NCBI GenBank assembly: GCA_003971905.1 | Contig: RSEE01000076.1 | Location: 310,001 to 349,668, forward strand | Direction: 5' to 3' | Source: Moniliella sp. 'wahieum' | Lineage: Eukaryota | DNA: 39,668 nucleotides | Shown here: one piece after another, positions 726 through 34,453 of the stretch | Layout: each line of letters begins with the position of its first letter | Numbering within the stretch: position 1 is the first letter of the stretch | The notes under the pieces: generated by a model | What the model was told of the DNA's origin: nothing | The model's database searches: none | Seen by the model: only the letters and a program-made list of their open reading frames with translations | Program-made: the position numbers and the translations under genes

Positions 726-761
726 AGTGACTAGTGACTTCAAGCTTCAAGCTTCAAGCTT
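726..761. repeat. Heptamer palindromic duplications AGTGA-CT-AGTGA and (CTTCAAG)3
   Basis: Read directly at 726-737 and 738-761. Confidence 0.9.
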
Positions 762-1305
762 TACTAGCTTCACTAGTGATGCTCTGATGCTCTGGTGAAG
801 CTCTTAAAGCTTGGAGCCGTAGAGCGGGCCTGTATCGCTCGGACCCGAGGGTTGCTTTCGGGCTGCACTTTTTGAAGCCTCTCTCTGCTTCTCGTGCTTC
901 GTCCACTTCACCATGGACAAGAGCGTGCTCCGTGAGCTTTTCGGGTGTGCATGTGGCAAGAGAAGAACTTGGAGACGCCTCGCTCTTCTTCCCCGAGCCT
1001 GGTGGCATCGAGTCTTCAGAACCGAAGCTGCTGTTGCATAGTGGCTTATATTTGGAGGCAATGGGGCATCAACAAAAAGGCGGCAGCACCTCGATAAGTA
1101 TAGAGGAGATAGGGCATGATCATTACCGCAGAGAGGCTGCCAAAAGTGGTGTAAAGTAGTGGGTGGGTGCAAGTACTAAGTGCTGAGCCGTGGTAGAGTG
1201 CGACTATAGACTTGGAATACTGGGTGTTCGTGTCCCAGCAACAGAAGCAGCTGAGCTGGCGTGGATCCGTCCCGTGTGGGAGGACAGGCCTCGTTGGTGG
1301 GCGTG

Positions 1306-1338
1306 TGATGCATGATGCATGATGCATGATGCATGATG
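1306..1338. repeat. Heptamer array (TGATGCA)4 TGATG
   Basis: Read directly. Confidence 0.95.
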
Positions 1339-1469
1339 GCAGAAATAACCAAATCCCCCCCAAAATCCATTCCGCCACCAGCGGAACGTTTTCTTGTTGG
1401 CCAAAGACCACCGCGCCGAAGCTCGCTTCAAGCTTCAGCATCCTCCACCCTCCAACATCATCACCCGTC

Positions 1470-4099
1470 ATGGTCGATGCGCCCAGCTTGTCTCCGAGTG
1501 CGCTCGCGGGAGAAGGCTTTACGCTCGTCGATGCAGATGCAGACACCACTGCCGCGAGGGAGGACCTCTACGCCCTCTTTGCTCCGCCCGACCGCTCCCC
1601 CGCTTACACCCAGCCCGGGTGGATCGAAGCTGTGCGCGCCCAGCGCACCCAGCTCGCCGGTCGTCTCTTCCTTGATCGTGTTTTGGGGTTTGCTCTCGAC
1701 TCGGACCAGATTCCCGAACTGTATCCGCCCACTTCGGCTGCTGGACTGCATGCGCTCATTGACCTGGTCGACGGTTCTACGACCTTTTCCAAGTCACAAA
1801 CCGACGCCATCATTTTCTATCTCCTCTTCGCCCTCTTCCCTTCCCCGATTTCGGCGTTTGGCCTAGGCCAGGGAAAGAGCGCCGTTGCTTCGCTTAAGGC
1901 TCAACGCGCCTCGCATCCAGCCCCCAATTCGCACAACTGGTTGGCCTGCCTCCGCCGCTACGGCGCGCCATCACTGCCTACGCTCTCCTCGACCAAGGCT
2001 TAATGGATCGTGCAGTGGGATTTATGCGCCCCGAGGAAGTTGAGTTCTCGGGGGATATGTTGGCGATTGTCCGTGCTCTCCCGGACGATTACACCCCGCC
2101 TCCCGACTTGGCGCGTGATGTGGCTCCGCTGCGGGCATATGGCCCGGGCGAGTATCGCACCCGCGTGCTCGTCTCCCTCGTCGATACGTTGGCGCTGGAC
2201 TTGCCCCAAGCCTGTGGACGAAGCCCACGCAGTGCTGCTCGCGCCTGGTGAGACGGACGTGTTACAGGACGCACAGGCCAACTGGGTCGCATATGCAGCA
2301 GCCCTATCGCTCACCCCGGGCACCGGACCTTGGGCTGTGTGGCAAAACATTGTTGAACAAATCCCCAAGGTTAAGACGGAGCTTGAAGAGCATGTGCTGC
2401 TCGATCTGGGCGAGGGCCATGAGCTTGGGACTCAGGTGGTCCTCGAGGCAACCGACAACCTACAGATCGCCATGGCCCGAGCTGTGTGGGAAAGTGTCTT
2501 TACTCGTACGTGTCTTGCGCCCACCCCCCCTTGGCACCCCTCGAATTAAGAACAGGGAACTGACTGGAATGTGGTTGTGACAGCTACTATACGCCCGCGC
2601 GCGGTAGAAGAGTTGCTAAGCATGCCCATCTCTCCTGTGGCCGGAGCAGCGCTTAAGGAAGCTGTCCTCAAGCCCTCTCCTGACCTTGGCGAGGTGGCAC
2701 GGGTAGCTTCGGGCGATACACTCTTGACCCGGTCCGTCGCCGACGCTCGCTACGTGGAGACGCTCCGACTGGATACCAAGCTCGGCGGGTTTGAAGGGTC
2801 GTTGGCGGTGCCTGCGGCGCAGCGCGCTGCTTTGGCCGCTCGTCGCCGCGACCTAATTCGTGGGGTGCGTTCTATCCTGCCGGCAATTCAGCGGCAAAAA
2901 ATCGATGCCGAACTCTCCCTGCGTCTGCCCATGGGGGCGATCAACTTCAGATGAGTTGGGAGCACGTTGCTCCGGCCGGATCGGACATGGGTGCGCACGT
3001 GGAAGAGTCCTTGCCCGTTGCCCAGCCCCTTAGCTCTTCACTCATGTCGACGAATGTCAATGCGGATCCGCAGGGTTCGCTACTGAATGCGATCAACCCG
3101 CTTTCTGCTCCGGGCCGGCGTGCCAGTTTGACACCGCGCCAGTCCAACTCCCTGACGCCGGCGGCCGATTCCTCCAAAACTCGTTCATTCCTGGCTACTT
3201 GTCTCGTGTAGCAGCCACGCCCCAAGCGACCGAGCCTACTCCCGTGGCAGATGCCGCAAATACGTCCCTGTCCCTCTCCCTCTCGCGCACTCGAGCCACG
3301 AAGCCCCGATCTAGTGTGCACGAGGCCTTTACCGACCCCGCCAATTTGAGTATCGCCTCCATCCGGTCCCGGTCGCATGCAGGGGACCGATCTGCGTCGG
3401 TCCTGGCGCCTGATCTCGGCGTGGAGTCCGGGCCGACTCAACAAGCAAGTGGGGAGAGCTTGGCATGGGGTCAAGGACTTCCCGCCACGCCCTTCCCACC
3501 CTTCCCCACAACTTTGCCCGAGCCGAGCCCGCACGACGAACCCGTTTTCCTCCCCCCCGCACCCGCGCATCTCCCTCACCACGGACGACGGACCTACTCA
3601 GCCCGATGCAGCTCCCCCGGCACTGAGACGTTCAGAGCCGATGTCCAAGTTGCCCTCTGCGCCACGCACGCGACGCTCTCGCGCCCCGAAACGGGTAGGT
3701 GCTTCGACGTCTCCCGGTGAGGCTGTGGAGGAAGCGGGAGCAAAGAAGACGGCCGTCCCCCGGCGGTTTGCCAAGGCGGCCAAAACGCGTAAGCCAGCGG
3801 CGGCTCCTGCGCCTGCACCAGCCACGCAACCGGACACGGTACCTGACCAGAAGCCGGAGCGGCGCACGCTCCCTGGCATGTTCCCCGGCATGGACGAAGA
3901 CGGGGAAGCGGAGCCGTCTGGGTCTGGCTCGACGCAACCCGTGTCGGAGCCCGTGGAAATGCGCCAAGTGCCGCCACCGCGTCGGACTTCGCCTCGTCGT
4001 CGGCGTGTGCGCGCGCCCGAGGCGGACGAACCGCAGACTCTGGTCGTTGACCCGGCCCCGCGGCGGCAGCCAACTAGGCGGACCAAGCGCAGTACTTAG
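1470..4099 (+). CDS. ELYS-like nuclear pore assembly protein (frameshifted; intron 2506-2583)
   Basis: GRLFLDRVL...LYPPTSAAGLHALIDLV...AIIFYLL resembles fungal ELYS-domain proteins. Removing GTACGT...CTGAC...CAG (2506-2583) joins FT-PTIRPRAVEELLSMP. The C-terminus is disordered and Arg/Lys-rich, ending RRTKRST* at 4099. Confidence 0.7.
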
Positions 4100-6216
4100 T
4101 TGGTCCTCCCTGAATCCACTGTATGCACTCGATGCGCGCTGCCCCACCCGAATCGTGATTCATGTTTCTTGGTCAGGTTCATGATTGTTGATTGTTGATT
4201 GATGATTGCCGATACGTGATTTGGTCAAATTAAGACGGGAGCAAGCAATTCATCACAACCACAACGGCACTTTCCTTTTGACTTCCTCTTTGGCCATATA
4301 GCCCAATGACCCGCCCTGGCCCCCTGGCGACGACGTCAGCTCTCTCAACACCCCATCCCGCTGGCTGGCATGGAAGGTGTGGATGACGAGGCGGATGGAA
4401 GAGTGGGTGTGAAAAGAGGGGAGAAGAAAAGAAAAAATGGGTTGGGTTCAGAGGTAGATTTCCCTGGTAGCTTGTCTAAGTCTAGTCTCAAGTAGGTTCG
4501 GCCGTATGCTTGGGAGTAGGCTCAGGAGAGTAGGCTCCGTGGTATCAAGATGCACAGAGCGTGTGCCAAAAAGTGCATTACTCTTCTAGCCCCATCACAT
4601 GTCGCATGCGGTTAGGCATCCCGTTCAGCGCCCCCGCCCGCCACGGGCCATGCATAAACGTTTCGTGGACCGGTGGGACGATGGACTACATACAAATACA
4701 GAACGGTAGGGGCCATGGGAGGCTACCCTACGGGACCCAAGCCAGGTCGTAGGCCTGGTGGCCTCTAGGCTGCACGCTTTCCTTAGTGTCAGGGTCGGCG
4801 CAAGACGAGTGAACCAGTACCAGCGTTGAGCCTCAGTTACGTTCAGGCCTCAAGGAGAGAAATGATTGGCAGAGAGAAACCGACGCCTACAGAAGAACAC
4901 AAGCAACCAGTCGCCGCCAGATCAGGGGCTAATAACAGGCTGCGCAGCAGGCCAAGCAGGAGCGACAACTCATCGGAACTCCTGCGACTGAGGAGGGAGC
5001 AGGCACCTGGAGAGAGACTCAAGGGACGCTGCGCGTGGCCAACATACACCACCCACCCGCGGTCGCGCTCAGCAGCCACAGCAGCCGCAGCAGCCAGACC
5101 AGCCCAAGCACCCCTGACAGTATCTAGTAAGCGCTACCGGGGCACACGCTGGCACAAGAGCAGTGCCGATCATCGATCCAGGCGGCATGCGGACACTGCC
5201 AGCCTCCACCCTCGCTGGGAAAGTGGTGCAGTGCCGACGGCTGCCAGACGATAGGACGCGATTTGGCGTTAGCGCGCTAGGTACTAGGTACTAGCCCCTG
5301 GGCTGCCTCGGCGCCTGAGCTGCGTGCCGGCCGAGCAAAGGACCGGGCAGCGCACAGCAGCGCACGGCACAGCTAGCGGCTACCATTATTTTAAGCTTCA
5401 AGCCGCACAATATAAACTTCACGCTGTGGAGCCGATCATCGATCATCGATCGTCTGCGGCGCTCGGCCGCTCATGCGCCCAGGCCCAGGGCTGGGGCAAG
5501 TTGGGCTCCTAACCCCATCACCATCAGCTCATCACCTTGGCTGGCCCCTCCACCTCCACCTCCACCTCCACCCCACCTTGGCAGCCCCTGGGGCGACGCA
5601 TGGCCAATCGCTGGTTACACTAGTCCCTAGGTCCCTAGGTCCCTAGTCACTCCGGTCACTACGTCGCTCTAGCCAGCCCAACCATACGCTGTTCCCCCCC
5701 ACCGGCACAACACACGCCTCACACACCGCCCCCCTCCCCGATCCCCGATCCCCATCCCACTGGCCCTGAGCTTAGCTTGAGCCTGTGAGCTGCCAGCACC
5801 ATTAGCCCTGGCTTAGCCTGGCCCGCCCTGGCCCAAAGACCACCCACCAGCCCACCTATAATTACTTCTGTCATCGCATCCAGCTTGGTTCAACCTGTTC
5901 AACTGAACGTTCAGTGCGTTCACCGCGTTCACCGGCACCAAAGTCCTCCCCTCCACCACCGTCACGCGTCACTACTGTTGCCCTTCTCAGATCTCAGGCC
6001 CCTCAGGTATGTCATACTCTCCATCACACTCCCGCCCCCTGCCGCTTCCCGTTGCTTCGATGCCCAGGGAGCATCATCGACATCATCCACATTCGGCTCG
6101 CCACCTCCCATCGCCCAACAATCTTAGGCCTCATCGACATCTCAGTCTCACGCCCAAAACCACCAACACCTGTGCTGCCACAGAGTCACTGGTCACACAC
6201 ATGTTCACAGGTCACC

Positions 6217-6274
6217 GGTCACATGTCACATGTCACAGAAGGTCACATGTCACATGTCACAGAAGGTCACATGT
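6217..6274. repeat. 24-bp tandem repeat (2.4 copies) built from TCACATG heptamers
   Basis: GGTCACATGTCACATGTCACAGAA at 6217-6240 and 6241-6264, plus a partial copy at 6265-6274. Confidence 0.95.
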
Positions 6275-7583
6275 GGCGCACTCAGTACTCAGGTGAGCAC
6301 ATTTTGAGGTCCCCGGGATTTCTGCACCTCTTCGGCCTCCTTCGGCTCAGCCTGAGCGCTCAGCCTCGGCGAGCCCACCTTATTGTGTGTCACACTGTGC
6401 ACCTGAGCCTGGGCGCGCCGAGACTCAGCCGCGCTGAGCCTCAGCTTTGGCACAGCCGACAGGAATTGCAGCGGCCCCGGGGACCTCAAAGGTGACCGGT
6501 GACTGTTGATCAGTGGATTAGCCCGCCCTTTCGCTCTTCCCTGCCCTCTGCCGTGTCCATTTGGGAGTCGCAAGGGACAAGTCATGCCGTGTTGCATTCC
6601 TCATCCGGCACGCCCTTGCGGACCTGGGAAGAATGGCGCGTGCAGTACAATATTCCCCGTGGATGGAACCGTTGGTCGACTTCTCTTACAACGATTCATT
6701 GGGAATCCTCATGCACCTCATGCATCATGATTTGTCCACCATGCTCCCTGTGGCTCGAAGCTTGAAGTTTGAAGCATGATCGGTGTTTGGTTGTGTGAAT
6801 GCTGACTTGTTCCATTTCGCCTCTTTTTTTCTGCTCTGCTCTTTCACAAAACCCATGCGTGGCATTTGGCCTATTCGACCTGTTTGGGGGTTCTTGGCCC
6901 TCGTCTTTATGCGATGGCCATATGTTGTCTGGCCTTGGTTGTTCACCTACAAAAATCACTTCCTATCCCTGTCACCATCACCGGCCTCTGCGACCTTTCC
7001 TCGTGATTACGATTGCCAGGCCGCCCAAATCCGTAATCAGTAATCATTCGTCATCGTATCCCAGTGCTACGCGCTAATTTCGCTGGGGATCGATCAACAC
7101 AGTGCGGCGCAACGCGTAACGTGTAACGTGTAAGTACTGTGCGGGCAGTGATCCGGTGATTCTCCAGTTTGACCCACTTGGCCGCTTCTGACTTTTGTTT
7201 TCTGGGCCTGCCGTGGCCAGCTGCCGAGTCGAGTGCAGCACACACCCACCGACTTGCTGCACAGTTGATTACTTTCACTAACTCACTGGTCACCGGCCAA
7301 CGCCCGTCAACCTGTATTACGCGCTAACGCTGTGGTGTGTTTTGCGTTGTTTGTCATCGATCACCCCAGGTTTCTTTTCAGGAAACCGCTCACGCGCATT
7401 TTGGAGACAACCTCTCCTACCGCTTAGCACCACCTTCCATCGCTCCCATTCTCCACTTCTTCCCGCTCCATCTGCAGCTCCAATGGTTACCGCCTACTCT
7501 CCACCACGCACGCCCCGAGCGAACCCTGCCGCTTCCCTACCAATATCCAGTGCCCCTATCGACCCCAGCCCCGACTCTATGCC

Positions 7584-9973: not shown

Positions 9974-10847
9974 CGGGACGGGTCTTGTGTAGTTACTTCA
10001 TCTGGGGTCTTTATTGATTGATGCCAGAGGGCAAGCAAGGTCACTTGCATATGTTAGGTGTGCTCGCAGACAAGAGGAGACGGAGTGGCGGCGTGTACCA
10101 ACATTGAAGCATATGCAGATGAAGCGAGAGGCCATGCACTTTTACTATAGCCTCAGCCTCGGACGCATGGGCTGACAACTCGAAAGACAGAGGAGAGAGA
10201 AAGGGCAGAGGGCTAGGGGACACTGGGGGGCAGCGACGGACTTGGGACGGCTATGCGCCCACCATCCGTATTGCTGCGAGGCACACTTGCCACCTGCGTT
10301 GGAGCCAACTAACAAGCACCCAGCAGCCCCTGAGGCCGAGACCAGGGGGCGCAAGGGCGCAGCGCGCGTGTGGGGCGCATGGCTTGAAGCGACGCTGAAG
10401 CTGGACACAGGCAAGGGACAAAAGTGAGCACTGGGGGGCGCAACAGGCGGCGTGCATACAACATACACACGTTGGGATGCCAGGGGGTTACGTAGCCGAT
10501 CCCACACGGGGCAGTGCCTGTAGTGCTGACACCCACTGCGTCCCACCGAGCACAGACCATGGATCATCGATCATGGATCATCGACCACACTGCAGTCATG
10601 TACCAGGATGTTGGATGCTGCGCATGCATCCCGATTGTGATGGATGATCGATGACGTCTGCCGTCGCGGCCGTCGCTCCTCGCGGCAGATGCCAATGGCA
10701 GACCCAGATCTCACTCGGCCTGCCGACAAGCAGCTGCCCTGCCGATGTGACGAGGGACGGGGGAGGGGATGCATGCTGCCTGCAGCAAGTAGTGCTAGTT
10801 CGCTTTCTTGAAGCTTGACGCCGCAGCTCGACACTTGACTTGTGGGT

Positions 10848-10872
10848 ATGATCGATGATCGATGATCGATGA
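10848..10872. repeat. Heptamer array (ATGATCG)3 ATGA
   Basis: Read directly. Confidence 0.9.
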
Positions 10873-11025
10873 CATTGGCATGAGCGGCTGCTCGATGATC
10901 TCAGCGGTGATGTTGCAGCCCACCTCGGCGCACCCCCACTTCTGTCCTCCCCTCTGCTCCCTTGCTCCCTCGCCTCCTGCCACCGCCACCCCCCCCCCCC
11001 CCCCCTCCCCCCTCCCCTCCCGCCC

Positions 11026-14000
11026 ATGCCAACGCCCGCCCGCCGCGGCCCCGCCACACCCCGCGCCCAGCGCCCCCTTCGCGTCCAGATCGTACGCGCT
11101 CAAAACCTCGCCGCCCGCGACACGAATGGCAAGAGCGACCCCTACGTCGTCCTCTCCATTCCTGGCATATCCTCCAAGCGGCCGCACCCCCGTCAAGAAG
11201 AAGACCCTCAACCCCGTTTGGTCCCCAGCGAAGGCACCTTTGACTTGACATTGACCCTTCCTGGTTCGGCCTTCCTACCACCACCTCTTCAGTCTCGCCC
11301 AGGCGCTCGTTTCGTCCTTTGCACAGCGCTGTCTCTCACCTGCGTCTCCACTCCAAGGCGCCTGCGCCATCCGAATCGCCCGATGCGGCCCCGGCTCCCT
11401 CGCTGGACGAGGCTGCTGGTGCCTCGGACGTAACTACGACGAGACAGTGCGATGGCACATGCGCTCGAATTTGTCCTGTGGGACTTTGACCGCTTTTCCG
11501 CAGCTGACTACCTTGGTGAGTGCGCTCAGTGTCGACCAATGGGCTACCCCCTTGACGGCCCAGGAAAACGTACCTCGATCGCCTGGGCCGATTCACAACC
11601 GGTCGTGTTGCCCCTGAGCTCGATGCGCAAGTTTCAAGGTGTGAAGCGACCTGGTAGTCAAGGTGGGCTTCCTCCACCTATCAGTCCCGGTCCCGATTCC
11701 GAGCCAGGGGCTTCGGAGCACCATTAACTGAGAAGCAAGCGGGACCTTGAAACGCTATATCATCGCCTTGTTTGTCGTCAAGGTGCCATGAGTGCCGTGC
11801 GGGGTGTGCCAGCGGACCGAACCATTGGAATGACCGATGGCGATGAGGCGTACATCTTGGATATGGAAGACAATCTCGAGGCTGAAGGAGGAAGTGGAGG
11901 ACGATGGTTGGACCAGTTCAGCGACTGGAAGTAACAACGGACCATTACCGCTCCATTGCCGGGGTACCGGAAGGAGCTACCAAGCCCTTAACGGAACTGC
12001 ATTCCACCTCGGCCGCCGGTGAACAGCGCATTCCTTCTCTCCTCGCGCTAAGTCCAAGTCGAGAATTTTGCCCCGGATACGCCAAAAGTCTTCTGCGTCT
12101 TCCTTTTCTTCGACCCGGCAGGGGGGCCGAGAGTGGGACGGAATCAGGCGATCAAGCGCTCGACACGACGCCGTGTGCCCCTCCTTCCCTCCCACACACC
12201 TCGCCGGCCAACAGGACTCGCGCCGCATTGGCCTATGCCCAACGTCACGGCTCCACGAACTCTTTGGGTGGCCTTAATTGAGATCAAGTCCGCTTCCAAC
12301 TTGCCTCGTTGGCCCAACAGTACGTCTCTTTGCGTCTTTCTTTCGCATTCCATCTGACCCTTGTCCGCCTCACCCTCTTGTTTCTCTTCAGTGGCCAAAA
12401 CAAGCTTTGATATGGATCCGTTTACCATTGTAAGTTTCTCACGGCGAGTATTTCGCACGGCCGTCGTGCGCCACAACCTCAACCCGTCTGGAACCAAAAG
12501 ATGATGCTCCCGGTTGAGGAGCACGAGAAACAATTTACGCTCAAGCTCACGTTTTTGATTGGGACCGCCTGTCCACCCACGACGAGATTGGATCAACGTC
12601 CATATCCATGTCGGACCTGATTGCTGCACGAGAGAGCAGCTGGCATCCGAGGGTGGGACGCGGGAACCCGGAAACTGGGTGTATCCCCTCGCCATTCTCC
12701 AGCGCCAAACCGACATTTCCGCTGGGGCTCGCACGCGGTGTTAGAGCTGCATCGCAAGTCCGGGGCGAGGCAACGTCGGACGAGACCATCCGGTAGTAAT
12801 GGAAAATGAAACCTTGCACCCTTACCATTACTGCGCATTGGCAGCCGTACGCGCTGTTGCGACAACGCCTGTGTACCCGCCTGCTGCTCCACTATGACGA
12901 AACGAAAACCATGCTACCGTCGTGCTGGAGCTGGACCATGCTTGCCTCTCTCACACTCGACCGTTTCATCATCCGACACAATCCGGTCCTGGTTCACCAC
13001 GATGGAAAGAACCCAGACGAGGACGAGGAGCTGACGTTTGAGCAAGCCATCGTGCTCTCGAGCGGGCCACTCTTACCCCCTCTCTCCGCCCTGCTTTCTT
13101 CCATCCACGCCCCGGCTTTGCCTACAACAAGTTCCTGCCTCTGAGGATACCAGGAAGGCGAATTCCTCAGCCCCTCAGCTCGACTCGCCTCGCTCTTCTT
13201 CCACCGACGCCGATCGTAGCATCGCTCCAGCAGTCCGGGCGAGCGCGAAGCAGAACGGGTGATCAATTTGGCCAAATGTCCGCTGTGCGACAACAAGACT
13301 TGACGGTTGACCGAGTTTGGGATGGTGACCCACTTGGCCGTTTGCGCGTCGCGGGCTGGTCCCAAGTCGATAACTTAACCGTTCATACCTATGTGACGGA
13401 GAGCCAAGCGCAACGCAAGTGGTATACCAAGCTGGTGCGCCATGTCGCCCAAGGACATACACCTTGGGCGCCAACAATGCCAATTTGATCGTGACCGACC
13501 GGGCGACGGGGGAAATACTTGGAGCATATGGCCATCTATGTGCGGTTAGGCATTCGGCTCATGTACCAAACCCCCCGGTCTCGGATGGACGGACGACGGG
13601 CGCAGCAGTTGCTTAAAATCTCATCATCCAAGCAAGGCCGCAAATACGACGACCCTGCGTCGGTCAGGACATTGCGCCCTTTGTCGCGTTCCTAAACTCA
13701 ATCTGGACGAAATCTTGTTGCCCATGAACGAGTTCAAGACGTTTAACCAATTCTTTTATCGTAAGCTCAAGCCCGACGCACGGCCGATCGAGGACCCAGA
13801 CATCCGCTGCGCGTCGTCTCGGCCGCCGATTGTCGCATGATGTTTTTCCCCTCCTGTCCGTCCGACGCAACTCAGATCTGGATCAAAGGTCACAACTTTC
13901 CGTCCGTACCCTCTTGGCCGAGGCGGTGCCTGAGGAGGAAACGGTGCGCCAACTCGAGCAGGTAGCCTGTGCATTTTCCGGCTTGACCGCAAGATTAATC

Positions 14001-14800: not shown

Positions 14801-14901
14801 GGCAACGTGCCCGAGCGGTTAAGGGGATTGATTCGAACGTTCATACGTGATCTGATATCAATTAGGCTTTGCCTGCACAGGTTCGAGTCCTGTCGTTGTC
14901 G
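14801..14901 (+). tRNA. tRNA-Ser(CGA) with 19-nt intron 14838-14856
   Basis: Acceptor stem GGCAACG/CGTTGTC with discriminator G; D arm CCGAGCGGTTAAGG; anticodon stem ATTGA/TCAAT with CGA at 14834-14836; intron one base 3' of the anticodon; long variable arm AGGCTTTGCCT; T loop GTTCGAGTC. Confidence 0.95.
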
Positions 14902-14902
14902 G

Positions 14903-18360: not shown

Positions 18361-20572
18361 GGCACAATGGCAAGCTGGCTGTGCGCTGCTGTGCGCTGCT
18401 GTGCCCTGGCCAATATCCAATCCCCAACCCAGCCAACGGAGGCTGCGACGGCGGCTGACCTGCTCGAGTAGAAGGAAGCGGAGCCGGTCGCAGGTGACTA
18501 GCTTGAAGCTTGACTTTCAAAGGGGTGAGGGTGATGCGCACGAGTACCCGTACCCTGGATAGGCGAAGATACACCCCAACACCGCCCCCGCGCCTGCACC
18601 AAACAAACAAATCGGTTGCATAATCGCACCAGACTGAGCATACAGATCCTGTGAAATATGACCGTGATACCGCTTACTCTCGCCCCACTTATAATCGTGT
18701 GTCCGTCCTATCACACCCTATCCCATCCTATCCCCCACCACCCACCACCGGCACCCCCACCCGCCCCCACCCTCTCCACCAACACCCGTTGCCCGGAACC
18801 TGGCACCCGGCATCCTCCGCCTCCCTCCACATGCTCCACAGACAGCGGTACCTGTGACACAGAAGCAACCATCGAATATCCATTGCCGGGACCTGACACC
18901 AACGACCAATGCCCACAACGGTCATACCTATTTCCACATCCACACGATGGATGTCATGACTTCGGTGACTTTGATGACTGATCGATCATCGATGCTCGAT
19001 CATCGATCATTATCGATGACCGAAACCATCGGCTAGCGAGCTTCTCGGATTTTCTCAGTTTTAGTCCCACCGGCCAATCCACCGATCACTGATCAAGATT
19101 CCATACTCAAAACAAAACACCCTGCTTTCAGAGTCTCCCCGGAGGGTAGACTATGCCAAGTCCTCCAAGGGGCAACGTAACGCACTCACAACCTTCAAGC
19201 TTCAAGCTTTCACCGGCCTCACCACCTCTCCCTTAACTCAGTACTCACTCACCTAGCCTGTCAAATCACACCACCCTATAGGCGTCGTCTCATGCATCAA
19301 CGTGCATCAACAGAAGAGTGTGTTGTGGCTGTGCTTTTTGCATTTAGGGATGCTGCCCTGACGAGGTACGACGGGTACGTCTTGATGAGATGGACGATAC
19401 GCATCGAGCATCATGTGCATCAAACCACTTATTGATGACGACTGCTCTTCTACAAAAGAAAACTTAAGAGGAAGAATGCGTGCTATTGATGTTTTGTGAC
19501 CGAATGCCTATGCCCCGCGAAACAGCAATGAAGCATGGGAGGTCTCTCAATAGACGATAGGGATCGCTTACTGGTGACGTTAGTAGAGAGTAGCGGAGGG
19601 AGGAGGAGGGAGTGTAAGATAGGGAAGACTAAGTCACGACTGCCGACGTTTCGAGAGAAGGAGGCACGTCAGACTGGTAGACTTCCACCTGGACGAAACT
19701 AGCGGGGCTAGCTGCTGAGTGGAAGTGGTTGGGTGCGGCAGAGACCGGCTATTCTCTTGGCACGCCGCATTGGTGTCCCAACACCATATTATACCGGGTG
19801 TGTCTATTGCATTCCTCGGAATACATTCCTTTTTCCGAGACTTTTCGTACATGAGCAAACACCTCTTCGTTGCGGGCGCGAAAACACTAACGACGGCCGC
19901 CGCACCGCCCCATCGATCATTCTACACGCGATACTCGTCATATCATAAGCTGGTATCGACTATGCATCTAACTAGACTCCATAGTAACTAGGCAACACTT
20001 ATCTCACCTTCAAGCTTCATCCAGCCTCATCCACCTCATCTCGCCCCCAACCATGACACTAAGTATATGCCTGCCAGTGGCGTTCGGGTGATCGCAGCGT
20101 TCTCGTGTTTGCAGTGGTTGACAGAGAGTTGCTGTGGCACATACCCCCAGTGGTCCAGGGCAATACGAGGGGCAGTGCCTTCTTCATCTTCCCTGGGTCA
20201 CGCCCGGCAAAGCCTCATTTCCGAACCAAGTTTCCACTGGATCTCTGGTCCACATCTGTGGCTGAAGGCGCTGAAGTGAGATTATATTTTTTTAACGTGA
20301 AGACCCCGATTGTAAGCAGAGACACAAAAGAGCCACGGAAATGACCAAGTTCGACGTAGAGCAAACGTCCGACAGGGAGGAAAAATCCATTGAGTATAGC
20401 TCACACGGCCTCCCTGCAGAAACAATTCCTTCAATGTCGGGGAGTACGTCCCAGGCGACGATTGAGGACACCGCCAGATTAACTAGCGGACAAACAAAAT
20501 GCGGCTAGAACAGCAGCAGATGGGTACTAGCTAGGAGGTATCATATCATAGTACAGTGCGTGACAGATTCCA

Positions 20573-21318
20573 TCAATCGATCATCTTCGCTACCGCGGCC
20601 CGCAACCGCTGCTCAAAGACATCTTCCAAAAACTGGCCATTGGAGGCAAACCATTCGCCCAGATGGCCCAGCGCAAACGGTTGTTCGGCCTGCTTCAAAA
20701 GTGTTTTGCCCCCATTAGAAGTGCGCGCATACTTCATCCGGAGCGAATAGACAGGCGGGACGCAAATGGGTTTGCCCCCCTCTTTGGATGGAGGCAGCAA
20801 GGTAGGAGGCGGAGGGGCACGGCACTGACAGTCAAACGCTCGGTAAGAATGATTCCGTGCTGGGAAGCCCGGCGGCGCGCAACCAAAAGCGCATCGCGCT
20901 CGTACCAGGTAAGGAGCTGCTGTACGACTGCAGAGGCGATGTATACGCCGACTGCCAGCAGATTGGGCGTCTTCTTTTCGGCTAGGCTCAAGGGAGACAA
21001 GTAGGACCAAATGCTGACGCCGATTAGGAGAAAGGCAGAAAGGTAACCCAGAACGAGCTTCGTATCGCCAATAACATGGGAACCTGCCCAGGGGGCCTGA
21101 ACCTGAGACGAGACTGATTCACTGTCGCCATCAGAGTCAGTGTCGCCGACGGTGGACCTGGGGTTCGACGCGGGGGTCAAAGAGCCACTCCCGGGTGAGG
21201 TGGGCTGGGCGGCACCAGGCGCGCGGGACAAGATGCGCTCCACTGCCCCATCACAGGTGTACTTGAGGTCAGGGAGGCTGGAAACATCGACGAAGGTGGC
21301 CTCGGCGGTGTCGGCCAT
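20573..21318 (-). CDS. SPC2: Signal peptidase complex subunit 2 (SPC25 family; frameshifted)
   Basis: MADTAEATFVDVSSLPDLKYTCDGAV, SHVIGDTKLVLGY, two hydrophobic segments, PVYSLRMKY and C-terminal GEWFASNGQFLEDVFEQRL. Confidence 0.85.
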
Positions 21319-21676
21319 AGCGCAGGAGACACAGCGGTAGGTGGCGAGGGTGCAGGCGCACACGAGATGGGATGGGCAAGGGAGCTGGCTGGCTTCCACG
21401 TGAGCGTCCTGGAGGATGGTCGGTGACGGGTGATCATCGATCATCGGATGCCCACAAGCGGGCGGCCGCTTCAAATGGCCCAGACATTTGAACTGTTCAG
21501 GGGCAGCAATTGAACATTGAATGCTGAGTCAGCTGAGCTGAGCGCTGATGCACTGGTGGTGATTCTGCCACATTTCAGTCCAGGTTCGCCGCATCCCAGG
21601 CTGGACACAATGCTGGGCTGCTCGCCGCCATGGCCAAACTTCTCGAGCGCCACCGTTGCCACCGCCTCGCCTGAGA
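21319..21676. promoter_or_regulatory. Probable bidirectional promoter between SPC2 and SSL2
   Basis: Divergent start codons about 360 bp apart. Inferred from gene arrangement only. Confidence 0.5.
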
Positions 21677-24208
<2,532 letters not shown>

Positions 24209-24770
24209 ACTAGTCCCCCCTCAAGTTTCGCCTTTCACACCTCATATCTATCAAGGTCATCCATCTGTTTCTCTTGTTCGTTCGCAGGCACCAAAATGAT
24301 CACTGAAGGTTGATCAAAGCACGGTGCATTACCCCATCAGAAAAGTCGGGCGACGTGTGAGGGGGGAGATGAGCATAGTGATGAAACTATAAATATACAT
24401 GGTGGTGTTGGTGTTGAACGCTTTTGTGGCCGTTGAGGCACAGGGAGGGGGAAGGTGAGAATGGGAGCTAGATGAGAGTTGGATGGAGAGAGGGCCAAAG
24501 TGTTGAACAAAAATGCAAGACGTTGAGTTATTACATGGTCGTGTCGTATCACCGGGGGGAGCCGGAGAAGCATGGGAGAAAAAGCGGGTCCGTGCCAAAT
24601 GTTGGGGGAATCTAGGCGGGCGGGCAAGGAAGAGGGCATGGAGGATGCAAGGTGGGGCGGGCACGTGTTGGAGGCTCGGAGCATGGGATAGGATACAGCG
24701 CTTGTTGGAGACGCTTGTCCCTTGGCAGGACCGGTCGAAGCAGAGGGACACTTGGTGGAAGAGCATAGGA

Positions 24771-26629: not shown

Positions 26630-27149
26630 GGCAAGACGTGGCGGGGGTGGGGGGGGGGCGATGGTGATGGTGATGGCAGAGAGATGGAAACAGGGGTGTG
26701 TCTACGTACGAGGAAAAAGCGGCAGCGGCAAACAACATCCCGCCCTGGGCAGAGGGCAGCAGCGCGGAGAAAAGGGAGGCTGCCACCGCCTCGGCCGCAT
26801 TTGACACTGACGCCGTGCTGGGTATTTCAATCAGCCATCATTGCCGGCGCCCCGCCCGGCACGTGCCCCGCGCACGGCGCCAGTCTCCCCCCATCTCCGC
26901 CTCCTTGGACTATCAATTCCGCCCCAACCAGCCGGCCCGGCTGCGAATATCAATCATCGCGCTGTCTTCACAAGTCGCCCCTGGGGCTGGCCTATCCCAG
27001 ATTCGCCAGGAGATGGCCAGGCGGGATGCTATCTCCCCTGCAGGTTTTCTCCCGCTGCTCTCATCCAACCGACCTCAGGTCTGAGCCTGTGCTACAACGG
27101 ACATACATAGCATGAACCAACAACACCTGCTGCACACCGTGCGTGCGTA

Positions 27150-27976
27150 TCATGCCGCGTTGATCAGCTCTTGGAACTCGCCCGACTCGACCGATTCCTG
27201 GATACCATCAATCATCCCAGTTAGTATGCGCATCCGGAAGTAAGGATCAGTGTATGGAACACATACCTTGAGAATGTCCAGCCCACCAATCAACTCGCCA
27301 CCGACAATGATCTGAGGGAAGGTAGGCCAGTCGTTTAGCTTCTTCATCCCTTGCCGCACACCCTCGTCTTGCAGGATATCATAGTAATCAAACTCAACCC
27401 CCTGCTGGCGGAGAAGAGCGACCGTCTTTTGGCTAAACCCACAACGCGGGGCATCGGGGCTACCCTTCATGAAGAGGACGACCTTGCCCTTGTTCATCAA
27501 GGCCTTGCACCGCTCCTCGATCTCTTCCTCCGTCTCCTCTCGGGGCTCCTCCTCGTCCGCTGCCGGGGTGTACGCGCCTCCTGCCGACGCTGGCGTCGCA
27601 GAGGTCGAAGCAGATGCTGCCGGTCCAGCAGCGTGTTGCGCCAAGGCCTCATTCAGCGCCTGCGCGTTGGCACCGGAAATGCGGCTGAGCAACGTGTGGC
27701 CGCGAAGCAAGACATAACAAGGAACAGATTCAATGTCAAAGCTGTCGCTTACATCCGGCTGGGCCTCAGCCTCAACGTTGAGGAAGGCTACTTTCGGATA
27801 CTTGGCCGCCAGCTGGGCCACCACTTCGTTCATCGCCTTGCATGGCTCCGCCACGGGGCCCAAAAGTTGAGTAGTGTGACCCGTGACAAGTCGGCCGTCA
27901 TGATGCTGGTAAAGTGATCGGGGCCGGTAACGTCGACCGGCACGCCGGGGGTTAGAGCAGGAGCGGTGGAGGACAT
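27150..27976 (-). CDS. GRX4: Monothiol glutaredoxin with Trx and Grx domains (Grx3/Grx4; one frameshift; intron 27198-27266)
   Basis: Trx-like LLNFWAPW/AEPCKAMN; Grx domain VLFMKGSPDAPRCGFS...WPTFPQ...GGLDILK; intron GTATGT...CTAAC...CAG. Confidence 0.95.
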
Positions 27977-28189
27977 CGTAAGGGGAATCGCCCGAAGAAC
28001 GTGACACAGGGGTGAAAAAAATGCCCTGGAGGTAGTACAGGAGGTGGTAGCGGCGGGGGTAGCTGTGGCAGACCGCAACCAGTTGAAACCCGCGCGACGC
28101 TATGGGCTGACGCCATCCATTCTGTCACATTCTTTCCTCGGCGACGACCAAGACCGGCGCAGTGCGGATAACCCTACCGCTATTATTAA

Positions 28190-28208
28190 TGAGATCTGAG
28201 ATCTGAGA
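28190..28208. repeat. Heptamer array TGAGA-TC-TGAGA-TC-TGAGA
   Basis: Read directly. Confidence 0.9.
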
Positions 28209-29059
28209 GTCATGGGGTGCGTCCACGGTGACCGTCACCCCTTGCTCTCCTCGGCCTCCCCCTTATCCAGTAGCTTGGGAATTCAATATGCACCGAGGCC
28301 GCCACCAATAAGGCACAGGCTCCCAGATGTATGATCAACTGACCCACCAGACCCTCCTACAGCTTGCCTCAACCCTGAACGTGTAACTCTTGCGGAGCGG
28401 AAATTGTTTGCCGATCAAAATAATCGGATCGATGAAATAATCGATCATCGATCGATGGATCGTTTTGATCACAGTCGCATCTGGCGCTTTAACAATGCCT
28501 TGCTGATGCTATCAGCGCTTAGCCTGAGCTCTGGTGTGGGGCACAGTTGCAGTGTGTCCTGAGTTGGCCATTATTCTTCCGTGCACTGACTGATATACCA
28601 CTAGCTTGTTGCGCGTTACAAGGCTGCTACCGTTAGGCCGGCTATCCAGGCCCGAGATAAAAAACACTGCGAAAGCAACTGTTATGCTAGGGTACCCCTC
28701 TGCATCATGCTCCTCAAAAGTCGGTGTCGGAGCGGCTCACAGTTGGATGAAAGAAGCGTTCCGCTTGCAGGCTGTGCAAATCCTCTCCTCGCTGATGCAT
28801 CTCGCCCTTCTCCATCCCCTGTTGTCTCCAGCCATTCAGCATGGCCGGAAACATGTGTCTAGCTGCATTGCCTTGTCCTAGTTTGTCGGAAGGCTACGCG
28901 CCGATGAGACTCATCCAGTAGGCTCATTTGTGTTCAAGTCGTACGAGCACCCGTGCCGCCTCAGGCCGCCCCCTTCAAGATTGAAGCAACAATTCACCAC
29001 CAAAACCACTGTAAAGCAGAAAGAATTGGTATAGATTTTGGGTATACGCTCCTGCGGTA

Positions 29060-30116
29060 CTACCCATCCCATTGGCCCACCTCGACGTCACAAATCCTCT
29101 CGAAGAATTTTTCGCTCGTCGGCCCCGTTTTAACCAAATAGGGCAGCAAGGCCCAAGCCTCGTTCAGTTGTTTGCGATTCCTCTCTCCGCCCTCAGTGGA
29201 GGATTGAGGGGCATCTAGGTCTGAAAGTGACCCTAAGCTGAGAGACACAATGGTAGAGCCGGTTAGGGCGGGAGGTCCGGCCAAGGTACCAGGTTTCCGT
29301 GGAGTAAGCTGGTCCAAAGTGCTTTGTAGGTCGGCGGTGCTCACGGAATATTGGCAAGTGAGTGAGGCCATGCCACGAACTAAAACGAGTTGGCGGCCCC
29401 CGAAAGACGAATACAGTTAGTTGCATGAGCGGGGCAAGGGAAAAGATACGTACCGAAAGCGTCCATGGTCCAAGTCCCCCACATGCCTTCCTGGAATGCA
29501 AACTCAAACCCCTGTTGAGCAGAAGCATCGAGAAGCAGCTGACGTGCCCGGGTGTCAATCTTCCGCATACGCTCCACAAATGAGTGCAAAGTCAGAAGTA
29601 TTTCAAGAAGAGTGTCCAGTGCAGTCTCCCGGTCGCCAAGCGCGGTTGCTAAGTGGTGTTCCTTGGCGCGAACAAGGGAAGGGTCATTCGACTGGTGGGA
29701 GGTGCGCATCGAAGGCACCAGACGCTCCACTTCTTCATCCGCTTGGGAATACGCCGACACAGCTTTGAGCCCATCCAGGGTCAGCATCTCCTCCCATTGC
29801 TCACGCCACTTCCGATGGTCGAGTAGCAACGAGCGCAAGGTGCGGTGAAACGTAATTTCCTTGTGACGGGGAAGAAGAGCATCCTGACCGGTGGGGTAGG
29901 TTGAGGCGCTGGGCTGCCGCCGCGGGCGCCACCAGAGGAAGGAGCAGCGGGACCCAAGGCAGGTGCGCCAAACGAGGCAAGCGTGACGGGTGCAGGGGAT
30001 CCACCGCGGGCACGCGGGGAGGAACCCTTCCTCAAAGGAGATGGAGATGTGGGCGCGCTGGCTGCACCGGGGCTAAAGGAAAAGGGGCGAGGCGTGGCAG
30101 GAGAAGAGGGTGGCAT
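29060..30116 (-). CDS. Hypothetical protein, probably CINP-like (frameshifted; intron 29380-29453)
   Basis: Pro/Ser-rich N-terminus followed by a helical region (RKWREQWEEMLTLDG...). Splicing GTACGT...CTAAC...TAG joins WGTWTMDAF-VRGMASLTCQY. C-terminal WALLPYL and EVEVGQWDG*. Confidence 0.55.
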
Positions 30117-30570
30117 GGGAAGGGAGGAGGATGCCTTACCTGGACATGGCTTGTGGATGGGCCAAAAAATGGTAATGAGATCACGAGAGCACGATTCCGC
30201 CCGCAGTTCCGCTGTTTGGCAGACCTAATGGTGAAGCTGGTGAAGGCCCAACCAGAACCAGGCAGCAGTGTTGCTTGGTTTGGCCCAGCGCTGCGCGAGT
30301 TGGGCGGGCTCGACAGGCCCGGCCCCTTCCATCCATACCATATGACAAGGTTGGTATAGTCCCCCTGCTCTTTATCGCCCTGACTGGTCCACAGGAGCTC
30401 CGCTTTTAAAGCGAATATATGGGCGCAAGTCCAAGATTTTGTCTATTAGTAAGTATAGTGTTTTGATATAGTACAAAACGGTGTGTCTTTATAGGAAAGG
30501 CATTGTAGGTTTTTTTATAAGCCACACACAGTTGCGCACAACCTAAGAGCCGAAGCGTGCGAACCATTCG

Positions 30571-32889
30571 TTAGGGACGGGGCCGGAGGGATTGGTTCCA
30601 AAAGCCTCGATGAACTTGCGGGTTGGAGTGCTGGGTGGAGTTGCGATGCCGAGATGGTACGAATGGACGAGGAGGGGTACTTCCTCTTTGGCCATGCCCG
30701 ATCATGTGAGCGGGCAAGGATCCCACGGTAAATACGGTGTCGGGGCTTAACTCGGGATCGCGCTCCCAAGGGACCCGCGATGACTGGGTGGGAACATTGG
30801 GCGCGTCGGAACGCACGTCACTGATCTGTTGATTGTGGTGGGGCCATGCAAGAGGTCCCAAAAAAGAGTAAGGGTCCTCCTGTTGCATCGGATCCTGCGC
30901 TGGCCACTGTAGGTGGGCATTGACCGCCAACATGGGGACCATGCGCTCCTCCCCAATAGGAAGTGACGTCTTGGGCTGAACTGGCTCGTGGTAGCGATGG
31001 TCTCTGCGCGTTGTCTTGCGGAAACCTATACGCGAAGCGTTGCAGTTCAAAGGAATATCAATCGCCCACTGTCGGTTTTAGTAGGTCGGAGGTCGGGCTT
31101 GAGGGCTCGGTGAGCGAGACCTTGTGGGGATGGTGTAATGTTGAGGGGACGGAGCGGCTCGTTGGAAAGGGAACTTCCTCATTCACATTGACGGAGGCAT
31201 TGGGTTCGTTGAGGTGATTGGGGGATGGGATGGGAACATTGATACCTTTGGGCCGCAGGAGATCACCATCTGGCTCTTCGATATTTCCCACCCCTTCGTC
31301 ATCATCCCATTCAAATTCGATAAAGGGATCAATATCGTTCATCATGGAGAAAGAGAGTTCGTTGTCGTCTTCGTCCTGGCCAACGGAAAGCGGTTCGTCG
31401 TCATCACCACTGGAATTCCCGGAGCACCAATCATCTTCTTCCTGAACAATCTGGGGCAACGTTGTTCTCCTTCCGCTCGGGTGACTGCTGGCATCAGCGA
31501 GAAGGCTTTCAAACGTAGGCCAGCGTTGCGGCGCCTTAAACTTGAGCCCAGTTCCCATGGGAATGAAGCCAGGAGATGAACTCATGCGTGTTGTTTCGTT
31601 CCATTTTGTCAGCGTCGAACGAGTGGCTTTGGGAGGAGGGGCCCGGTTAGATAAGTTCGGTCAGTGAGATCCCATGGTTTATTAGTCGTTGTCCCTGCTC
31701 CTACTTCCCTGTTGGAGTCGATCGGAGAGGTAAGGTAAATGTTATCTGCCACAACAGTCTCTGCCACTTGCTTGGTGTGCGTATCCTTCAATGGATGAGC
31801 AGTGCCCATGGGTGTAACTCCTGTGCCATCCAGAGTAAACATGGGAGAAAGGTACGGCGCTCCTTCATAAACGCTGTCGTTCTGTTGAAGGACGTTAAAG
31901 AGGCGGGTTGGTCATGGTCCGCTTTCTCAATTGCATGAGCCCACTCGGCTTCGTACTCCGTAGCCAATTGATCCAGACGAGTTTGGAACGTAGTTGGATG
32001 TGTGAGAAATGGGCATTGACAGCGACGGATCCTTGTTGCACCACCATCTCCGGTCCAAGCCCACTGCCTGAACTGCGAGGGGCAAAGGAAAGTCGCGGCC
32101 GTAGCTCGACTGCAATCCCAGACTCCATTACGGAGGAGGGGTGTAAACGCGGGAATGTGGCGATCCCGACGTTGCTTTTTCGAGCTGGAACCACTAGTAA
32201 TAGAAGAAGGCGACAATCCACATCCTTGAAGAAAGGGGGGTATGTTCAGAGTGGGTTGGGGTACCGGGGGTAGGAGTGGGCTGCCTCGCTCAGACGAGGA
32301 AGGAGTGGGTAGAAAGGAAGTGGGCGGGATGCACACTTGGTAGATAGAGGAGTACCAACTCGACCTGCGTGCTTTCTCGATCCCTTGCCTGTTCAGAGCC
32401 GAGGAGAAGACCCAGACATTTTCGTGCCTGGCTGAAGCACATTCCCCTTCTTCGGTCTTCGCCGTGTGCGGGGCATGACGAGAGTTTTGGGCTGTGGTGT
32501 AGACATACGTTTTGCACAGCTGACATCCATGCCACATCTGCTCGGACCCTCCGAGCTGCATGCAGACTGAGGGAAAGCAAAGTGGGGAACCGCTGCACAT
32601 TAGAATGCGCAGGTGGGAGCGGAAGAAGACCGAGAACGTCAGCTTCATTCCGTTGTGTTTGTACACACCGACAAAAACTCCACCCCAGGAGAGAGGGTTG
32701 AAAATGAGAAAGAGCGCCATAACGTACCACTGACATGCTCATCATCTTGAACCGCTCAGCCCGCAAGCGATCTGCTGTTCTGGCAGCAGCATCAACGGCC
32801 AGGCCCACCAGTTTGAGTTGAATGTTGAGGCACAAGCACGACGCGCTGTGGGAAGAGTGCGTATGATCATGTCGCCACTCGGTTGTCAT
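30571..32889 (-). CDS. Hypothetical protein with N-terminal CxCLN / CxxC motifs and an acidic disordered C-terminus (frameshifted; probable intron 32593-32727)
   Basis: MTTEW...SCLCLNIQL, GCQLCKTYVY, WYSSIYQV, a helical segment FQTRLDQLATEYEAEW and acidic tracts. Intron signals GTACGT...CTAAT...CAG. Confidence 0.55.
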
Positions 32890-33539
32890 GGAGTGAGAGT
32901 CGCGAGAGAAACGGATGTGGTGGTGCAGGAGAGTGAAGGATAACTTAAGGATTATTCGAAGAGAGAATGTATAAAAGTCTTGTCAGACTGGTATACACGG
33001 TCTTCTGTCAAAGAGTTATAGTAAGTGTGGGCCGGCGAGGGGACGGAGATAGTTGAACAGTATTGTTGCATATTGCATACTTGTTTTCTCTTGCTTCTAG
33101 ACGCCCGCAGCACCTACCATGTCTTGCATGAGTCACTACCTCCTAGTCATGCAGTGCCCGCCAACAACGACAGTATCGCAGCTTAATAGAGGCCTGTGTA
33201 TTTGATCGGAGACCCGCCTATAGGGGATGGAGACATCCATTGGCATTATCGACCAACGTTGAAAGAGCACGTTGAATCGCGGTGGCAGGTACACTATTTG
33301 TCGAGTTCATCATAAGCGCTAAGCATCATTCAACGTTCATCGAGTTCATCGTTCACATCGACGTCGTTCATCGATCAACCTCTTCTCTCGCCTCCCCGCT
33401 TTCGCCCGAAGCTCGAAGGATCTCCGAGTCGTGTGGTTTGTGAGTAGCTTCATGCATCACGCCAACAACAGTGTGGGGTAGACTGGAGTAGTGCGGGAGG
33501 TCATATCAGCCAACCCTATACCTCGCTGGGAACATTATG

Positions 33540-33558
33540 CGTTACGCGTTACGCGTTA
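33540..33558. repeat. Heptamer array CGTTA-CG-CGTTA-CG-CGTTA
   Basis: Read directly. Confidence 0.9.
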
Positions 33559-34453
33559 ATACGCTTCGTGACTCTCGTATAACTTTATGATTGTGCTTTT
33601 ATCGTACTAGAGTGAAGCCGAGACGGTGGCGGGTGGCTGGGTCATGTCATGAAATATGCACCTGGGCGGTGAAGAGTTGTGGCGCCTGGACGCGTGGGGG
33701 TTGGGGGGGCAGGCAATCACCCCCCCAACCCCCCAACACTTGTGGAAGACTGAGTACTGTGATGAAGCAATTGATAAGAGACGAGGGGATAAGACGGAGG
33801 GAGATTTGTTGAGACGGACGAGACACACACAGGCCAAGAACAAGGCTGTGTGAGTTGTACCTGTCGCAAACCACTCATGCAACTCATACATCGTGTGTGC
33901 GTGGCATGTCGGTGCACCCCACCTAAAAAGGGCCGAGAATGACGAAAAGAGAGGAAGAAGAAGTGAGCCCCTGCTACCACGCACCCGCTGATAACCCTGG
34001 CACTGGAGACTATACGTTGGTTCGATTGGTAGGTAAATCACATGTCACATCTTGAGATAGGGAGAGAGGGGGGGGGGGGTTGAGCGAGGTCGAGGCAACA
34101 CGCCAACCTGCATGGGTGGGCACGATACGGGAGTGTTGGAAGAGGGTGATTAATGGTTTGGGGGGGGGGAATATAACTTTTGCTGCCCACTGCGCAAGCA
34201 GCCTCCAAAGGAAGAATCGAACACGGAGGAGAGGGCCGCATGCGCTCGCATGCCACTGCCCGCTCCATGCGAGCTCAACACAAGTATAGGCGCATGCGGC
34301 GTACAGGGCACATCCAGTGACTATAGTATCGATGATCATAGTAATAAAGCGGGAGGGGGAGGGGTGGTGGGGAGGGAATTCTGACCCAGACCCAGACCAA
34401 GGGAGCCAAGACCAAAAGGAACGTCACAGTGACGCGCCAGCTGGACTATAGCT

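Follow-up and report, generated by a model that had tools for sequence, protein, structure and literature searches.

Tc1/mariner elements such as Sleeping Beauty leave a stereotyped footprint, a 7-base-pair (bp) odd palindrome whose central base is ambiguous, since two identical 3-nucleotide (nt) overhangs pair with a mismatch at the center, and quasi-palindrome template-switch mutations create or perfect small palindromes through short inverted copies of neighboring sequence. Hairpins on the flanking DNA are made by hAT, Transib, MULE, and RAG, according to the account in PMC5499845. For Basidiomycota, PMC12730594 describes 7-bp target duplications of hAT7 in the rust fungi Puccinia and Melampsora and of Kyakuja in Laccaria, and the hAT relative TcBuster is described in PMC3499496 as duplicating nnnTAnnn with a central TA. 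Here, we analyzed a stretch of 39,668 bp from the fungus Moniliella sp. 'wahieum' (contig RSEE01000076.1, positions 310,001 to 349,668), referred to below as the window, in which short 7-bp repeats outside of genes follow one palindromic rule. All counts refer to this one window of one genome, and positions are numbered from its first base.

A sequence-only reading of the window had proposed that 5-mers of the form NNTNA are duplicated with a 2-nt spacer that is the reverse complement of their first two bases, or in mirror form of their last two. All 23 of its 12-mers were found to be exact, and every entry of its list was correct, although the loci at 660, 5960, 5985, and 33313 and several array phases had been missed. 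In total, 53 positions (31 forward, 22 mirror) fit the rule, out of 290 5-mers that recur 7 bases on, which upholds the proposed enrichment, as 300 dinucleotide-preserving shuffles of the window gave 0.19 on average and never more than 3. The pattern is a confirmed, real observation. It can be restated symmetrically: a 7-bp sequence abTSAfg (S = C or G) turns into abTSA-b'a'-abTSAfg or, in mirror form, abTSAfg-g'f'-TSAfg, where primes mark complementary bases. Both forms are one rule once the 7-bp abTSAfg is taken as the unit of action. The repeated 7-mer XY-TSA-Y'X' is an odd palindrome which, when rotated, reads as a 6-bp palindrome A-Y'X'XY-T (A-NNNN-T) plus one C or G, and the same unit can be viewed as TSA plus a 4-bp palindrome. 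At 32 loci of this T.A type, 5 to 7 bases recur at distance 7, as two remaining copies of a target duplication would.

The window contained 100 maximal runs of period 7 that had 5 or more matches. Those with primitive units numbered 97, against 34.2 in shuffles, and this overall excess is what ordinary slippage of heptamer microsatellites would give, in which case chance or composition would have produced the palindromic appearance. Several perfect multi-copy arrays with their copies head to tail and a few repeated 7-mers that are not palindromic, e.g., at 4182-4208, also agree with it. However, 35 of the 87 runs with units of at least 3 letters (40%) had an odd-palindromic unit (abc-n-c'b'a' in some rotation), compared to 10.5% over all 7-mers and 3.0 runs per shuffled sequence, and 32 of these 35 were T.A-centered. 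Moreover, the typical locus consists of 1.7 to 1.9 copies and ends at a fixed phase, and slippage cannot create a first copy with a complementary dinucleotide. Slippage of this ordinary kind is very improbable as the source of the pattern, and in its plain form we consider it, like chance, to be excluded. The repeat at 4182-4208 (TGATTGT, 3.9 copies) is the only clear case of a 7-bp repeat that has a TGA center but is not palindromic, and it is located near the 3' end of the region of an ELYS-like gene.

The symmetry was found at period 7. At periods 5 (14 of 49 runs), 6 (17 of 80), 8 (2 of 43), 9 (1 of 95), 10 (2 of 56), 11 (3 of 54), and 12 (1 of 76), no excess of symmetric units was observed, each value being near its own background; this rules out a generalization of the rule to other periods. 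The complementary spacer postulated by the sequence-only reading was carried by 49 of the 62 NNTSA 5-mers repeated at distance 7, where 1 in 16 would be expected. Spacers of 1, 3, 4, and 5 nt were complementary in 1 of 9, 0 of 9, 0 of 27, and 0 of 5 cases, respectively. A variable number of palindromic (P) bases was rejected, as the rule was not seen for spacers of 0, 1, 3, 4, or 5 nt.

Analysis of the center revealed a similarly clear preference. A 7-bp palindrome followed by its own first 5 bases was found 53 times with T at base 3 (0.12 in shuffles), compared to 2, 1, and 0 times with C, G, and A at this position (0.72, 0.60, and 0.15 in shuffles). The T.A center thus stands, while the wider NNTNA form proposed before does not extend to every TNA: TCA or TGA was the center in 30 of the 32 T.A-type runs (TCA 21, TGA 9, TAA 1, TTA 1, with 3 other centers completing the 35 symmetric runs). 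Palindromes followed by their first 3, 4, or 5 bases (T at base 3) occurred 73, 60, and 53 times, against 2.8, 0.57, and 0.12 in shuffles. Since 53 of the 60 palindrome-plus-4 cases go on with A, T, S, and A are all part of the copied site. Furthermore, 10-mers in which a 4-bp palindrome is enclosed by two TNA trinucleotides had equal N in 45 cases and unequal N in 12, and therefore the central base is copied directly and not complemented. The outer dinucleotide was present on one or the other side in 39 of the 45 equal-N cases. This speaks against a 3-bp TSA duplication with remnants of an element terminus, a candidate that was dropped also because no 3-bp model solves the product. Ten different outer dinucleotides were found, each paired with its own reverse complement, in agreement with the earlier statement that the repeats are not one motif; such covariation without a consensus indicates templating rather than a binding motif.

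The repeats lie in non-coding DNA, as had been claimed and as far as a rough gene map allows this to be said, which is based on Pfam matches and open reading frames (ORFs) with no gene prediction behind it and yields an intergenic set of 10,023 of the 39,668 bp. Within it lay 31 of the 32 T.A-type runs (binomial P = 7e-18). The sole exception, at 18500, lies 5' of the first ATG in its frame, and for the runs at 1306 and 1425, at or before in-frame ATGs of the ELYS-like ORF, untranslated status depends on the choice of ATG. No sequencing error mode can produce this confinement, and with 53 positions where shuffles never exceeded 3, an origin of the pattern in chance or in an assembly or sequencing artefact is hardly conceivable. 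The majority of sites are situated 5' of genes. Forward forms (XY at the start, TSA at the end) made up 16 of the 32 runs, mirror forms (TSA at the start, outer dinucleotide at the end) 7, and ambiguous forms 9. Neither the excess of forward over mirror forms (16 versus 7, binomial P = 0.09) nor their split between the left and right halves of the window (Fisher P = 0.067) was significant.

The forward form, taken as plus strand, is found as TCTCA-GA-TCTCA at 660-671 (1.7 copies) and 5985-5997, CTTCA-AG-CTTCA at 1425-1437 (upstream of the in-frame ATG at 1470) and 20008-20019, CGTCA-CG-CGTCA at 5960-5972, ACTCA-GT-ACTCA at 6280-6292 and 19236-19247, GGTGA-CC-GGTGA at 6491-6503, GATCA-TC-GATCA at 10562-10574 (within a degenerate 3.9-copy array at 10558-10584), GATGA-TC-GATGA at 10643-10654, CTTGA-AG-CTTGA at 10807-10818, CTTGAAG (2.0 copies) at 18500-18513, where the ATG mentioned above belongs to a minus-strand frame, and GCTGA-GC-GCTGA at 21537-21548, preceded by a period-5 GCTGA repeat. 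Also on the plus strand, CGTTACG (2.9 copies, TTA center) at 33539-33558 contains three ACGCGT hexamers at 7-bp steps. The mirror form, taken as minus strand, comprises a perfect array of TGATGCA (4.7 copies) at 1306-1338, which holds ATG...TGA mini-frames just 5' of the ELYS-like ORF, TCATG-CA-TCATG at 6718-6729, TGAGATC (2.7 copies) at 28190-28208 upstream of a glutaredoxin gene, TAAGC-GC-TAAGC with its TAA center at 33313-33324, and TCACA-TG-TCACA at 34038-34050.

The loci to which no strand was assigned are AGTGACT (2.0 copies, ambiguous form) at 726-739, perfect arrays of CTTCAAG (3.4 copies) at 738-761 and of GATGATC (3.6 copies) at 10848-10872, immediately 5' of a C2-domain ORF, and CTTCAAG (2.4 copies) at 19193-19209. 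GATCATC units belong here as well, at 5167-5178 (1.7 copies, terminating in TC and not TCA), 5433-5451 (2.7 copies), 18981-19010 (a degenerate array of about 4 units, with runs at 18981-18993 and 18996-19010), 21432-21446 (2.1 copies, within the divergent SPC25/XPB promoter), and 28440-28453 (2.0 copies, with symmetric ends). The last of this group is the compound locus at 6210-6237, GGTCA-CC-GGTCACA-TG-TCACA-TG-TCACA, a forward form from GG and a mirror form from CA that share one 7-mer. A perfect 24-bp tandem duplication (6217-6274, 2.4 copies) includes the whole heptamer array at this place, and TGTCACA (2.9 copies, minus strand) at 6242-6261 is the copy of 6218-6237 that it produced; larger local duplications therefore act on these regions, too. 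Heptamer pairs at 5985-6010 and 6280-6297 end in CAG, with GTATGT or GTGAGC immediately after it. These sequences resemble 5' splice sites, and a portion of 5900-7400 may therefore form a spliced 5' leader.

The promoter-side or otherwise non-coding position of 32 of 32 runs raises the question of whether the repeats are tandem palindromes with a cis-regulatory role, i.e., clustered 6-bp sites of dimeric transcription factors that were amplified by slippage and kept by selection. Units are indeed reused across promoters: 8 loci have GATSATC, where 2.6 would be expected, and 6 have CTTSAAG (1.9 expected). The hexamers ATCGAT (25 in the window versus 6.4 in shuffles) and AAGCTT (20 versus 8.0) are enriched, in part outside the arrays. 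The ACGCGT hexamers at 33539-33558 have the sequence of the MluI cell-cycle box, and the arrays at 1306 and 10848 directly abut start codons. However, no single factor could account for ten different A-NNNN-T hexamers, all spaced by C/G and repeated at a constant 7 bp, and single 12-mers stop exactly at TSA, leaving the second site incomplete. Away from the runs, TSA adjoins a 4-bp palindrome scarcely more often than expected (7.6% versus about 6%), and single-strand folds of 8 of 8 arrays were no better than those of shuffles (z between -1.7 and +1.0). One-mismatch variants, as decay products, were about as frequent as exact copies (58 versus 49 positions), which fits a steady input with neutral decay. 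Altogether, we consider selected regulatory sites a rather unlikely origin of the repeats. The divergent SPC25/XPB promoter additionally harbors, at 21523-21537, GCTGAGTCAGCTGAG, a symmetric repeat of 9-bp period that adjoins the heptamer sites and contains TGAGTCA, which we take to be an AP-1/Gcn4-type site.

The explanation that we find most likely, at a probability of roughly 40%, is that the loci are scars of one stereotyped process of templated 7-bp insertion at (R)T-S-A(Y), and most likely footprints at transposon donor sites. Hairpin chemistry, transposon, and order of events are what we infer from the product; the rule itself, its symmetry, its specificity for period 7 and for T-S-A, and its confinement to non-coding DNA are observed. 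In such a process, a cut-and-paste element would duplicate a 7-bp target abTSAfg centered on C/G in open, non-coding DNA and, upon excision, leave both flanks as blunt sealed hairpins. Each hairpin would then be opened 2 to 3 nt from its tip, and the overhang of one flank would be lost wholly, while that of the other would persist and undergo fill-in. In this way, one target copy would lose two bases and receive in their place the reverse complement of the two outermost bases of its partner copy, giving abTSA-b'a'-abTSAfg or its mirror abTSAfg-g'f'-TSAfg. The opening offset would have no effect on the period of 7, and offsets of 2 and 3 would be indistinguishable in sequence, since base 3 is T and base 5 is A. 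Since each scar offers two fresh TSA sites and a tandem repeat, arrays could grow to 4.7 copies by repeated visits or replication slippage, and units bearing ATCGAT or AAGCTT may later have been retained as promoter elements.

To define which footprint models yield the product, all combinations of duplication length (0 to 11 bp), position, nick offset (0 to 3), hairpin opening, and trimming were enumerated by brute force. The product arose solely from blunt hairpins (offset 0) with a block starting at X, in 17 solutions. Two equivalent listings among them call for a 4-bp duplication and 3 P bases; formally valid, they were rejected, since 53 of 60 cases go on with A. For 5 bp, an intact copy with 2 P bases (two equivalent listings) or trimming of 1 base with 3 P bases solved the product, and for each length from 6 to 11 bp, two solutions were obtained, in which the length minus 5 is trimmed with 2 P bases or the length minus 4 with 3 P bases. 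Trimming equals P length for 7 bp alone (2 and 2, or 3 and 3). The 7-bp version is self-consistent: opening of both hairpins k bases off the tip, with one overhang removed down to the duplex and the other retained, would give a period of 7 for any k.

The 5-bp duplication favored by the sequence-only reading fared less well, as NNTSA would be an asymmetric target and the P bases would come from one side, with 1 unambiguous case of the other side in 49 positions; an intact left copy with 2 P bases, as for a Transib/RAG-like 5-bp element, remains a formal solution with these same drawbacks. A 7-bp target is preferred over 5 bp because it explains both mirror forms and the compound locus at 6210-6237 symmetrically. 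The reconstructed targets (n = 28) showed T-S-A plus a weak, symmetric preference for purine at -2 and pyrimidine at +2, and nothing else. By analogy with transposase targets, such symmetry is what a two-fold symmetric enzyme would be expected to give. Of the footprint interpretation made before, the templated duplication, the complementary junction, and the fit of blunt-hairpin models thus stood, but neither an element or transposase in the window nor variability of the junction was found.

Compared to the described systems, a direct target duplication flanks the junction, as in hAT, Transib, and MULE footprints and with V(D)J P nucleotides, and the bases at the junction are reverse-complementary to the flank next to them, as in hairpin footprints and V(D)J coding joints. 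Unlike in classical hairpin-forming elements, the block is 7 bp (or 5) and not 8 or 9. The period equals the 7-bp stagger that PMC12730594 gives for hAT7 and Kyakuja of the same phylum, and it fits hAT7 rather than classical 8-bp hAT elements; the data agree equally well with a block of 5 bp plus 2 P bases. The passages on these two elements in PMC12730594 do not report them from Ustilaginomycotina, and its supplement gives consensus sequences of the elements without the target duplications of hAT7. With respect to the nnnTAnnn target given for TcBuster in PMC3499496, NNTSANN would be an odd-length counterpart. The Tc1/mariner scar is likewise a stereotyped 7-bp odd palindrome, but its sequence is set by the element ends with a TA duplication, whereas the outer bases observed here vary with the flank, and its center is mismatched, whereas here the central base is copied directly.

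Several results weigh against excision scars. No Transib, hAT, or CACTA gene, terminal inverted repeat element, or transposase domain of the kind foreseen in the earlier interpretation was present in the window: Pfam searches of 215 stop-to-stop ORFs of at least 90 amino acids found no transposase domain, inverted termini bordered by a pair of 7-bp direct repeats were found 0 times in the 39.7 kb, and no long repeat family other than the arrays themselves was seen in it. In addition, the product is far too uniform for end joining, with 2 plain 7-bp duplications and 1 case with a single P base against 49 rule-fitting ones. Products retaining both overhangs numbered 0 in the window, and TSATSA, which would result from clipping of both, was not in excess (48 versus 39.4). 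The variation of junction length that hairpin opening and end joining would bring was not seen, the junction being fixed at 2 nt. hAT elements of the Hermes type nick one base into the flank, and no solution of the enumeration with such an offset of 1 gives the product; the products predicted for it were not enriched in the window, either (1, 0, and 0 versus 0.08, 0.13, and 0.12 in shuffles), apart from a period-5 class (5 versus 1.3). Measured hAT footprints, as presented in PMC3499496, are heterogeneous, with deletions of up to 50 bp, whereas the junction described here is constant, with 2 to 3 templated bases and an equal loss on the other side.

The uneven use of heptamers and the enrichment of ATCGAT described above count against scars as well and point to selection or hot spots. 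By estimate, about 10 of the 32 loci have more than 2 copies, which is above the level of independent hits, and this, together with the overused motifs, suggests that a primary process was overlaid by slippage, selection, or hot spots. Lastly, a density of about 1 locus per 300 bp of intergenic DNA would require long-sustained activity. Period-5 repeats showed a small excess in the product-spectrum count (8 versus 2.3). TSA-centered 5-bp tandem duplications were observed at 490-501 (GTCAC), 11239-11250 (TTGAC), 20539-20550 (ATCAT), 21531-21543 (CTGAG), and 33640-33651 (GTCAT), i.e., at 5 loci versus 1.3 in shuffles, and the same process may give rise to them as a minor product.

The absence of an element from the window would also fit a transposon-free error of repair or replication, namely, a two-step template switch in which synthesis runs forward through TSA, back for 2 to 3 bases, and forward again. 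The two reverse-complement axes lie 3.5 bases apart, as would be expected of a zig-zag copy, and the T and A around the center would supply two base pairs for the first switch. From the steady-state numbers, we infer a rate of about 1 insertion per 25 to 30 point substitutions in intergenic DNA, an estimate and not a measurement, and a few percent of the substitution rate suits a host process better than rare transposition. However, such a switch leaves unfixed why the return point lies exactly two bases past TSA, does not explain why the inner pair is T.A only and not A.T, C.G, or G.C, and finds no parallel in symmetric units at periods 5 and 9. Quasi-palindrome mutations, moreover, have no fixed length and no T-S-A requirement and usually bring no net tandem duplication. 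We know of no template-switch signature of this kind, nor did literature searches find one. We regard a template switch as unlikely; in this model, the near-self-complementary T-S-A would nucleate it where open promoter DNA suffers breaks or fork stalling.

The window has a GC content of 58%. Its ORFs are broken and short, and their Pfam matches are to eukaryotic housekeeping genes. These include the ELYS-like gene (from about 1470, plus strand), the C2-domain gene (from about 10880, plus strand), an S9 peptidase (15343 to about 18230, minus strand), SPC25 on the minus strand, which shares its promoter divergently with XPB/ERCC3 (about 21680-24205, plus strand), MTHFR on the minus strand, and a monothiol glutaredoxin (27153-28124, minus strand). 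The closest named matches of the latter at high coverage were from Ustilaginomycotina (e.g., Tilletiaria, Tilletiopsis, Jaminaea, and Exobasidium), with 55 to 62% identity, which points to a fungus probably of this group, a basidiomycete yeast or a relative of the smuts. For the ORF at 31791-32738, which has no name, a Protein Atlas search gave no usable match. Across the window (1-39668), the cumulative GC skew falls to about 15 to 23 kb and rises afterwards, in parallel with a switch of gene orientation from mostly plus to mostly minus strand.

Other repeats were noted as well. The 10-bp tandem repeats GCAGCGCACA (2.3 copies, 5347-5369) and GCTGTGCGCT (3.1 copies, 18378-18408) lie 13 kb from one another, both in intergenic DNA, and each is the reverse complement of the other. 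Near gene starts, there are long homopolymer tracts of C or G (10989-11025, 34068-34079, and 35908-35920), the longest comprising about 17 C inside a 37-base C-rich run. A hexamer array of AGCAGG (9.2 copies, 37673-37727) in a long minus-strand ORF with no Pfam match is likely a coding low-complexity repeat.

Full-text literature searches found no description of the signature itself, which does not prove that it is unpublished. It is a tentative possibility that a highly uniform process that has not been described so far writes 7-bp near-palindromes at (R)T-S-A(Y) sites of fungal promoters. Its agent could be a host repair pathway, or else a transposase that forms hairpins, cuts with a 7-bp stagger, and is either very active or domesticated. 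If so, this process would run at a few percent of the point-substitution rate and would be a main source of new palindromic hexamers, i.e., of potential sites for dimeric factors, and of changes in promoter length in this lineage. Should the repeats be elements under selection instead, their A-NNNN-T form and constant pitch of 7 bp would amount to a promoter grammar of an unusual kind. If they are scars, about thirty visits of a now invisible mobile element or nuclease would be recorded in 40 kb, and both the target (7 bp centered on T-C/G-A) and the chemistry (blunt hairpins) could be derived from sequence alone. A hidden mutational force would then become measurable genome-wide, and the loci would show how a repair scar seeds palindromic promoter motifs.

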